From Escherichia coli (lineage in GTDB: Bacteria; Pseudomonadota; Gammaproteobacteria; Enterobacterales; Enterobacteriaceae), in NCBI RefSeq assembly GCF_003334305.1, contig NZ_QOWS01000002.1: a stretch of 64,000 bases of DNA; one strand, 5' to 3'. Within the stretch, counting starts at the first letter, position 1. Every line of letters starts with the position of its first letter. Below the pieces are notes generated by a model. The model ran no database searches. It was not told the DNA's origin and saw only the letters and a list, made by a program, of their open reading frames with translations. Below, one piece after another: positions 31,799 to 31,981 of the stretch. The position numbers were made by a program, and so were the translations under genes.

Positions 31799-31981
31799 TC
31801 ATCGATCTTGTATCACTTTTTTGCCGGAAGTTGTTTGCATTTTATTAGTTGGATAGGGTTTGTGGATTTTTGCTGGCTGACGGGCAAATAAAGTTTGTTT
31901 AATGGTTTGCTTATCTGCCAGTTGATTAATCACATGGCGGGCTATCTGACCGCCAGCACCAAGAATCAGTACATTTTTCAT
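31799..31981 (-). pseudogene. ymjC: N-terminal fragment of an NAD(P)-binding epimerase/reductase-like gene (ymjC-type remnant)
   Basis: 60-codon ORF; first ~30 residues are a Rossmann N-terminus (MKNVLILGAGGQIARHV), then the frame runs into sequence with no domain continuation and terminates, so it is too short to be a complete epimerase. Confidence 0.6.

Follow-up and report, generated by a model that had tools for sequence, protein, structure and literature searches.

In many Escherichia coli genomes the divergent genes mpaA and mppA are kept apart by ymjC, ymjD, ycjY and pgrR, and this block carries a direct repeat of about 30 bp at its two ends, which raises the question of how such a repeat came to flank a regulator gene and its targets. 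The locus was analysed in a stretch of 64,000 nucleotides of E. coli DNA (contig NZ_QOWS01000002.1, assembly GCF_003334305.1), here called the window. The answer that we propose, and to which we give a probability of about 0.72, is that the two repeat copies are the attL and attR core scars of an ancient, decayed lambda-type element that inserted between mpaA and mppA. What the genomes display is an ancestral single-copy site, a flanked insertion, homology to a phage P arm in register with the repeat, later deletions, and blockless genomes of which the flanks are identical to those of a block-bearing genome.

The repeat pair

The core of the left copy, CACTTTTTTGCCGGAAGTTGTTTGCATTT, occupies positions 31814-31842 and that of the right copy, CACTTTTTTGATGGAAGTTGTTTGCATTT, positions 34260-34288 of the same strand, with 27 of 29 nucleotides identical (two mismatches). 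Ungapped extension gives 36 identities over 42 positions, at a start-to-start distance of 2446 bp. In the proposed reading the copies are composed as follows:

31806-31847, plus strand: left repeat copy, attL-type core, consisting of the mpaA-side arm B, the overlap and element-side sequence
31815-31829: segment of the left copy aligned to the 15-bp common core of lambda, with the putative 7-bp overlap TTTGCCG at 31820-31826
34252-34293, plus strand: right repeat copy, attR-type core, consisting of the P-arm side, the overlap and the mppA-side arm B'
34261-34275: segment of the right copy aligned to the lambda core, with the putative overlap TTTGATG at 34266-34272; the right end of this copy holds a candidate -35 hexamer of mppA

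A preliminary description of this DNA had already given both copies with their orientation and two mismatches, only the end of the left copy, placed at 31843, being one base too far; the further similarity upstream that it mentioned is seen in the extension, which starts at 31806 and 34252. It also had the copies bracket the ymjC and ymjD remnants, ycjY and pgrR, with ycjG and mpaA outside on the left and mppA outside on the right, and this agrees with the gene order in the window: ycjG (+), mpaA (-), ymjC (-), ymjD (-), ycjY (-), pgrR (+), some 340 bp of non-coding DNA, and mppA (+). The region is 100% identical to the corresponding part of E. coli 2013C-3181 and 99.0% identical to that of K-12 derivatives, and the arrangement is therefore termed K-12-like here.

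Chance similarity between two AT-rich intergenic stretches would need nothing more than their T-rich composition, but as an explanation it has practically no probability left and is ruled out by shuffled controls. The pair is the top-scoring direct repeat of the 64-kb window (score 25, runner-up 17), against a mean of 16.0 (sd 1.2) and a maximum of 20 in 60 dinucleotide-preserving shuffles; the 29-mer pattern with up to three mismatches occurs at two sites in the window and at none in 100 shuffles; and conservation of the pair extends to other E. coli lineages and to Escherichia sp. E1V33.

Two familiar sources of intergenic repeats were also considered and rejected. A dispersed family of the REP, BIME or ERIC type, or a known RNA, does not agree with the presence of only two copies in the window, with the low count per genome (a probe of 421 bp across the single-copy spacer found a median of two places per E. 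coli genome, and four at most), or with the Rfam scan of 31400-34600, which gave no match at E ≤ 1 on the repeat and a single sub-threshold match elsewhere. A target-site duplication left by a transposon or insertion sequence (IS) was discarded in view of the length of the duplication (37-42 bp), the absence of a transposase, and the absence of a listed inverted-repeat pair at the block ends.

The empty and the occupied site

The two genes that adjoin the insertion site are located in the window as follows:

30989-31717, minus strand: mpaA, the left ancestral neighbour of the insertion site
34346-35959, plus strand: mppA, the right ancestral neighbour of the insertion site

With MpaA as the query, 80 species representatives with 8-kb flanks were collected and neighbouring genes were located by tblastn; 74 loci were long enough for this purpose. 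In nearly all of them, representing about 70 species, mppA is the divergent neighbour of mpaA, the spacer mostly measures 176-203 bp, and each such short spacer has one copy of the element that is doubled in the window. Adjacency is found in E. albertii, E. whittamii and three other Escherichia species, and in Citrobacter, Enterobacter, Lelliottia, Leclercia, Kluyvera, Kosakonia, Pluralibacter and others. This pattern is broken by Escherichia sp. E1V33, which has the block, and by Salmonella enterica subsp. arizonae and diarizonae, which have a different insert of 3.1-3.4 kb. In Escherichia the single copy reads TATCACTTTTTTGCCGGAAGTT(G/A)TTTGCATTTCTT, combining the left-copy variant with the sequence that flanks the right copy on its right. 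Since about 70 species combine adjacent genes with one copy, the adjacency of mpaA and mppA is ancestral and the ymjC-ymjD-ycjY-pgrR block is an insertion.

Both states also occur within E. coli. Among 40 genomes, evenly spaced over 5419 matching ones and with four loci fetched in full, nine (sampled O157:H7 strains included) have the full form, with a short-chain dehydrogenase/reductase (SDR) of 212 aa, two alpha/beta hydrolases and pgrR (locus L003). The second hydrolase is missing in 12 genomes (L004), most of the SDR is additionally missing in the 17 genomes with the K-12-like form, two of them carrying IS insertions, and the remaining two genomes (L001, L002) are blockless, with 182 bp between mpaA and mppA. 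By a junction probe, 174 of 5426 complete E. coli genomes (about 3%) have the blockless arrangement. Most E. coli thus possess a block of 2.4-4 kb that is bounded by two repeat copies, and outward of each copy the sequence goes on as ancestral spacer. Whether the block is present or absent is a simple marker for this polymorphism. In some strains IS30 or ISVsa5 is inserted within the block (NZ_CM129873.1, NZ_CP090212.1).

The suggestion in the preliminary description that the repeat marks a rearrangement separating mpaA and ycjG from mppA is supported by these data. The adjacent single-copy arrangement that it predicted exists in E. coli itself and in nearly all other Enterobacteriaceae species sampled, and the block is not uniformly present in relatives, about 70 species having the empty site.

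Alignment of 73 distinct spacers revealed conserved blocks near mpaA (GGCAGTGTTGTGCAAA and ATAATCAAAT), in the middle (ATCAnTTT, GAAG and TTTGCATTTC) and nearer to mppA (GAAACAAATAATTACGCAT), and it is the middle group that the duplicated stretch covers. Two of these blocks are almost invariant in the 73 species, namely the 16-nt GGCAGTGTTGTGCAAA, which lies about 30 nt upstream of the mpaA start codon (L001 3845-3861; 31744-31760 in the window), and ATAATCAAAT, slightly further upstream. The following feature can be recognised on the mppA side:

34280-34309, plus strand: candidate sigma-70 promoter of mppA, TTTGCA-18-AATAAT, with the -35 hexamer inside the right copy

A promoter consensus scan found seven sites where 5.8 were expected, which is not significant by itself. 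Because both hexamers of this candidate coincide with the two most conserved spacer blocks, it is likely to be the mppA promoter, and the right end of the right copy would then hold its -35.

This bears on the possibility that the repeat is an operator or promoter element that has been kept upstream of both mpaA and mppA. The duplicated stretch does span the conserved footprints ATCAnTTT, GAAG and TTTGCATTTC, the right copy holds the candidate -35, and both genes are annotated as acting in murein-peptide recycling. On the other hand, a single ancestral copy served the divergent pair and two copies would require an insertion anyway; the copies have the same orientation on the chromosome and hence opposite orientations relative to the two genes; and the part of the left copy that is equivalent to the -35 is open to change (TTTGTATTT in L004), this copy belonging to an open reading frame (ORF) remnant in the window. 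The PgrR targets published from systematic evolution of ligands by exponential enrichment (SELEX) include, in this region, only the ycjY/ycjZ spacer (PMC5934670), so that a PgrR operator as the cause of the repeat is unsupported by the published lists. Such a shared site, which was the alternative offered in the preliminary description, is therefore not needed for explaining two copies, and we consider it very unlikely as their origin, even though the element does overlap conserved footprints of the promoter region.

A lambda-like P arm beside the right copy

The strongest indication of the nature of the inserted element lies in the spacer between pgrR and mppA. A BLAST search with this spacer against plasmids matched records of 48.5 kb, and a phage search then named the stretch as phage lambda attP. 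Positions 34174-34268 of the window are 76% identical to lambda 27637-27731 (E 6e-8 in 2.3 Gb of phage DNA), with equivalent matches in HK629, HK630 and others, and the matched features are annotated as attP or misc_recomb. In the lambda record the 15-bp crossover core is at 27724-27738, and int starts at 27812 on the opposite strand. Two pieces of foreign DNA can be delineated:

34173-34251, plus strand: lambda-like attP P-arm remnant, of which 34173-34247 aligns without gaps to lambda 27636-27710 (57 of 74 identical)
34107-34199, plus strand: fragment of queH (epoxyqueuosine reductase) from which both ends are absent, foreign DNA, called a pseudogene by PGAP in L003

The part of the P-arm match that lies wholly outside the repeat (34173-34247) is 77% identical, and its alignment score of 80 compares with 20.4 ± 3.3 for shuffled sequences, none of 500 reaching it (z about 18). 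It includes a 16-nt stretch, ATTTAATATATTGATA, that is identical to lambda and that we take to hold the H2 site for integration host factor (IHF), as TATCAATATATTA on the other strand fits WATCAANNNNTTR. The homology is in register with the repeat: the lambda core GCTTTTTTATACTAA(GTTG) aligns with ACTTTTTTGATGGAA(GTTG) at equal spacing. When the alignment is continued to the right, lambda CAGCTTTTTTATACTAAGTTG stands opposite TCA-CTTTTTTGATGGAAGTTG of the window, and the layout CTTTTTT-5 nt-AAGTTG has the same spacing in both, including the distance from CTTTTTT to AAGTTG. The lambda core is thereby placed at 34261-34275 and, through the register of the two copies, also at 31815-31829, in the left half of the repeat, and the lambda overlap TTTATAC corresponds to TTTGATG in the right copy and TTTGCCG in the left one.

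In lambda-type sites the core-type half-sites form imperfect inverted repeats around the overlap region, the P arm holds P1, H1, P2, X1, X1.5, X2, F and H2, and together with the P' arm it provides sites for IHF, Xis and Fis (PMC4880445). At the present locus the presumed right half-site is CAACTT (complementary strand) and the presumed left one TCACTTTTT, at lambda-like spacing; the ancestral site alone is not significantly lambda-like. The P-arm homology ends about 95 nt to the left of the core (-95), just before the lambda 'int 2' site, where it meets the queH fragment, of which 34107-34147 is 90% identical to queH genes on plasmids.

On their outer sides the two copies are flanked by sequences that together make up the ancestral spacer, and the left flank of the right copy is the P arm. 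The right twin is consequently not the simple duplicated piece of host DNA that had been assumed in the preliminary description, as its left half is continuous with a lambda-attP-like arm brought in by the insert.

The spacer segment containing the queH fragment and the P arm (34010-34251) is unusually variable in E. coli, with 94.6-100% identity and two main haplotypes, as compared to the neighbouring pgrR. About 16 private changes are found in the P-arm/queH stretch of E1V33. The variability of this stretch points to old, unconstrained DNA and hence to an old insertion.

Origin of the repeat

The course of events that we envisage starts with a temperate element of the lambda (tyrosine-integrase) type, which would have integrated at an attB within the 182-bp divergent promoter spacer of mpaA and mppA. 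If the attP of this element shared about 30-37 bp with the host site, one copy would have come to lie on each side of the insert, the left copy made up of host arm, overlap and element sequence and the right copy of phage P arm, overlap and host arm. Since the shared stretch includes the mppA -35, integration would leave the promoter uncut: the right copy and the untouched host sequence downstream of it would keep the mppA promoter whole, and the left copy would do the same for the region upstream of mpaA. Subsequent decay could have reduced the element to about 75 nt of P arm, the queH fragment, about 110 nt of left-junction DNA without a match, and a four-gene cassette, which may have been cargo near the P arm that remained when phage genes were deleted, or may have replaced the interior later. 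By two further deletions the second hydrolase would then have been reduced to ymjD, and the SDR gene, most of which went together with the hairpin downstream of it, to ymjC fused to the left copy; and in some lineages the whole block would have been lost again by a break inside the repeat. In this scheme the integrase as agent of the insertion, the cassette riding in on the element or taking the place of its contents, and the right copy as part of a promoter are what we infer.

The distribution of mismatches is in line with this scheme. Of the four differences in the 37-bp shared stretch two are on the P/B side (TCC/TCT and TGTG/TGTA), two are in the overlap (GAT/GCC) and none is in the rightmost 17 nt, a pattern that fits hybrid att sites. 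The overlaps differ in the window, L003 and L004 (GCC on the left, GAT on the right) and are identical (GCC/GCC) in L097, a further E. coli locus, and in L007, that of E1V33.

Several observations weigh against a lambda-type origin. The overlaps GCC and GAT of the window cannot directly be produced by an integrase; as an integrase needs matching overlaps, the difference would have to be a later change. No integrase, excisionase or other phage gene is present in any form of the block, the genes being confined to SDR, hydrolase(s) and pgrR. The truncated P arm lacks the positions of the lambda 'int 1' and 'int 2' sites. At the expected position of P', the approximately 110 nt beside the left copy (L003/L004 1445-1555), which are deleted in the window, gave no phage match in a BLAST search with 116 nt and scored 16 against lambda P', compared with 19.6 ± 3.3 for controls; the resemblance of lambda P' to the mppA-side arm of the host is also weak and not significant. 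The predicted attP (P-O-P') was not found in INPHARED, IMG/VR or a metagenome collection by BLAST of phages and exact-pattern scans, the right junction retrieving from phages only the lambda-type attP at 76%, and the contexts of the blockless MpaA allele comprised the two known arrangements and no intact element. Finally, the ancestral site alone has no significant similarity to the lambda core. With integrase, P' arm and donor all missing, the case rests on the pair of empty and occupied sites and on the in-register P-arm homology.

The absence of a detectable recombinase and P' arm, together with the scrambled fragments at the insert ends (a queH piece without both ends and a truncated P arm), could also be accounted for by a duplicative insertion that was not site-specific. 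In that case illegitimate or replication-based repair, through staggered breaks or template switching, would have duplicated some 40 bp of target, and the attP-like sequence would be passenger DNA. We regard this as unlikely. The P-arm homology lies directly against the repeat, and its register is just the one by which the lambda crossover core falls on the repeat, an improbable coincidence for a passenger; 37-42 bp far exceeds the target duplications of transposons; and no inverted-repeat pair with arms at both ends of the block is listed.

If the repeats are indeed att scars, a promoter -35 forms part of the core of what may be a new lambda-family attachment site, for which no phage was found in the phage, viral-contig and metagenome collections searched. 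No description of att remnants around pgrR was found in the open-access literature. The understanding of integration itself is not changed by this finding.

Later deletions and the ymjC remnant

The genes of the block in the window are:

33110-34009, plus strand: pgrR, LysR-family regulator, part of the inserted cassette
32052-32984, minus strand: ycjY, alpha/beta hydrolase, first gene of the cassette operon and divergent from pgrR
31987-32052, minus strand: ymjD remnant, the 18 first codons of the second hydrolase followed by three codons and a stop (21 codons)
31799-31981, minus strand: ymjC remnant, the 46 first codons of an NmrA-like SDR continuing into the left repeat copy (60 codons)

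The preliminary description correctly had the ymjC frame run through the left copy: in the 60-aa ORF (31981 to 31799) the part from codon 47 (31843) up to the stop lies in this copy. A full-length homologue of the N-terminus, which it had proposed to search for, was found in the 212-aa SDR of other E. coli, with which residues 1-46 are identical. Less fortunate was the idea that the fusion belonged to the event that created the repeat. In L003 and L004, which have an intact SDR gene (L004 1609-2247), the left copy is non-coding spacer between mpaA and the SDR stop codon, and pairwise BLAST showed that ymjC was formed by a deletion of about 660 bp (L004 1449-2108; junction at window 31843-31846) that begins exactly where the identity of the repeat ends. 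The fusion of ymjC to the repeat is thus real but secondary, outside the event that made the repeat. The ymjD remnant was likewise formed by a deletion, of about 886 bp (junction at window 31988-31995, by pairwise BLAST); the intact second hydrolase gene is present at L003 2283-3215.

Probable loss and transfer of the block

The L097 locus (CP092815.1) has a K-12-like block, but up to the copies its flanks (3.9 kb on the left side, 1.46 kb on the other) are identical, N bases excepted, to those of the blockless L001. The two copies of L097 are perfectly identical over 30 bp, and precise deletion between them yields the exact spacer of L001. Since ordinary homologous import would require that a crossover fell within some 46 nt of the left side of the block, we favour loss of the block within the repeat as the explanation for the difference between L001 and L097, with re-integration of a circle as the alternative. 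Blockless haplotypes are not uniform: L002 resembles Escherichia sp. MOD1-EC7003 (L005) on the mppA side, and because of this likeness to another Escherichia species some blockless sites may be retained or imported empty sites.

Transfer between species is suggested by E1V33, whose flanking genes (97% and 95%) place it with E. whittamii, in which the site is empty. The block of E1V33 is 97% identical to that of E. coli and the flanks are only 88-90% identical, the mismatch density dropping from 13 per 100 nt to 0 at 31801, so that the switch occurs at the left copy. This difference between block and flanks indicates that an E. coli-like block has crossed the species boundary. The K-12-like block of E1V33 (L007 5373-8001) has the same two deletion junctions as that of E. 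coli.

A more far-reaching explanation would be that the block is a discrete and reversible module, which leaves and re-enters the spacer by recombination in the core of about 30 bp and in this way moves between Escherichia species, with recombination mediated by the integrase of a resident lambdoid prophage acting in trans, or by RecA. It fits the contrast between block and flanks in E1V33 as well as the existence of blockless and block-bearing E. coli with identical flanks, and if it were true the block would toggle mpaA in or out of PgrR control. We consider it possible but rather doubtful.

The cassette and its connection with mpaA

Relatives of PgrR with 87-89% identity are present in Klebsiella, Raoultella, Citrobacter koseri, Kluyvera, Enterobacter and Salmonella. 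The same cassette, with a LysR gene divergent from hydrolase, hydrolase and NmrA-like SDR genes, occurs on plasmid-like contigs of Klebsiella, on the Raoultella chromosome and in C. koseri, and some relatives additionally have an adh_short short-chain dehydrogenase gene and a gene for a reductase of the Oxidored_FMN (old yellow enzyme, OYE) family. The segment L003 1556-5172, which starts at the hairpin behind the SDR gene and ends at the pgrR stop, is 79% identical to the Raoultella cassette at the nucleotide level. In Klebsiella, Raoultella and C. koseri the cassette has unrelated surroundings. Since none of these contains murein-peptide genes, the cassette appears to be a movable accessory unit, and its position beside mpaA and mppA in E. 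coli would be an accident of integration.

On two Klebsiella contigs (L085 and L087, 5383-13606) the pgrR-type cassette is located near genes of plasmid type, including a toxin-antitoxin pair of TacA/acetyltransferase, and a second, more distant copy with LysR, hydrolase, NmrA-like SDR and OYE-type reductase genes is found 4 kb away. A related Klebsiella contig (L086) has ParB and SSB genes.

The full-length forms have a hairpin after the SDR gene (L004 1560-1592) with a stem of about 12 bp, a folding energy of -17.2 kcal/mol (z -2.6) and a U-rich tail; a simple terminator scan gave no call at this hairpin. In the K-12-like form the deletion takes the hairpin along with the 3' part of the SDR gene. 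The unit ycjY-ymjDC-mpaA has been listed as controlled by PgrR (PMC5934670), and it is for the control of the ycjY-ymjD-ymjC-mpaA transcript that PgrR was named a regulator of peptidoglycan recycling. As the deletion removed both the end of the SDR gene and the hairpin, the co-transcription of mpaA with the cassette and the link to PgrR in K-12 are probably a by-product of this deletion. The link may be absent in roughly half of the E. coli genomes, namely those that keep the SDR. The analysis thus provides a concrete origin for a widely quoted K-12 locus, in which pgrR and the hydrolase and SDR genes would be foreign cargo between mpaA and mppA, and the connection with murein would be secondary. 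The undeleted form is kept by many E. coli, including the sampled O157:H7 strains, and the regulatory link of K-12 may not be general.

Other insertions near the site

The mpaA-mppA spacer and its surroundings have received other DNA as well. In S. enterica arizonae and diarizonae (L026 4847-8001 and L027 4561-8001) an unrelated insert of 3.1-3.4 kb in the same spacer has two unnamed ORFs and, between them, a gene for a cytolethal distending toxin B protein (379 bits, cut-off 189). The breakpoint on the mpaA side of L027 is 2 nt beyond the position equivalent to the putative overlap (..CAACTTTCTGCCGGA/TACAG, the slash indicating the break). As a second flanked insertion this islet was rejected: no flanking repeat was found, and the mppA side has been replaced by sequence unrelated to the ancestral spacer (scores of 22-25, shuffles about 20 ± 3). 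A shared 12-mer, CTTTTTTGATGG, is not significant. Three Escherichia species other than E. coli (L006, L009 and L010, approximately 2950-6200) have about 3.2 kb between ynaI and mppA, which are adjacent in E. coli, and in L010 this DNA has two ORFs of 641 and 359 aa.

Comparison with known systems

Lambda attP/attB and attL/attR are the obvious reference. The present locus shares with them direct repeats around an insertion in a single-copy host site, and it has 74 nt of P arm with 77% identity, of which 16 nt are exact, at the same spacing from the core. It differs in the overlap (TTTGCCG/TTTGATG instead of TTTATAC), in the host site (the mpaA-mppA spacer instead of gal-bio) and in the length of the shared stretch (about 30-37 bp instead of 15 bp), and whereas lambda is complete, the present element is a fossil without int and xis or a recognisable P' arm and with a P arm cut at about -95.

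That a lambda-related arm can be combined with another core is illustrated by HK022, the textbook case of a lambdoid phage with lambda-like arms and a different core and host site. The combination of such an arm with a distinct core and overlap is what is seen here as well, but HK022 is a live phage with its own Int, whereas no phage or integrase with the present core was found; HK022 itself is absent among the BLAST matches of the right junction to phages.

The state of decay can be compared with that of cryptic prophage remnants and islands of E. coli that are bounded by att-derived direct repeats, such as KplE1/CPS-53 and e14. In both cases the integration is old, core repeats flank it, phage functions have been lost and cargo not derived from a phage has been kept. 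KplE1/CPS-53 and e14 have retained integrase or phage genes and are annotated as prophages, whereas at the present locus only an arm fragment is left, and there is no phage annotation in the records examined.

With integrators of tRNA genes such as P22, of which the attP carries a copy of the target end so that integration is not inactivating, the locus has in common that a shared stretch borne by the element rebuilds a host feature, in this case the region upstream of and including the mppA -35. The rebuilt feature would here be a promoter segment in a divergent spacer and not the 3' end of a tRNA or protein gene.

The mEpimmI phages, which have a type III integrase and integrate at the start of mppA (PMC11893012), attach in the same neighbourhood. 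These phages differ from the present element in that they are non-lambdoid, intact and already described, and in that their site, some 110 bp to the right of the repeat, lies within mppA at about 63 nt after its start codon. An intact prophage of about 45 kb with a tyrosine integrase is present in mppA of the blockless E. coli MFDS1019527 (L002 6040-7446; L094), again about 63 nt after the start codon; it was dismissed as a relative of the fossil element, since it uses the different, published mEpimmI site (PMC11893012).

In plan, the repeat pair resembles lambda attL and attR; as a member of the family, it is at best a decayed and non-functional relic.

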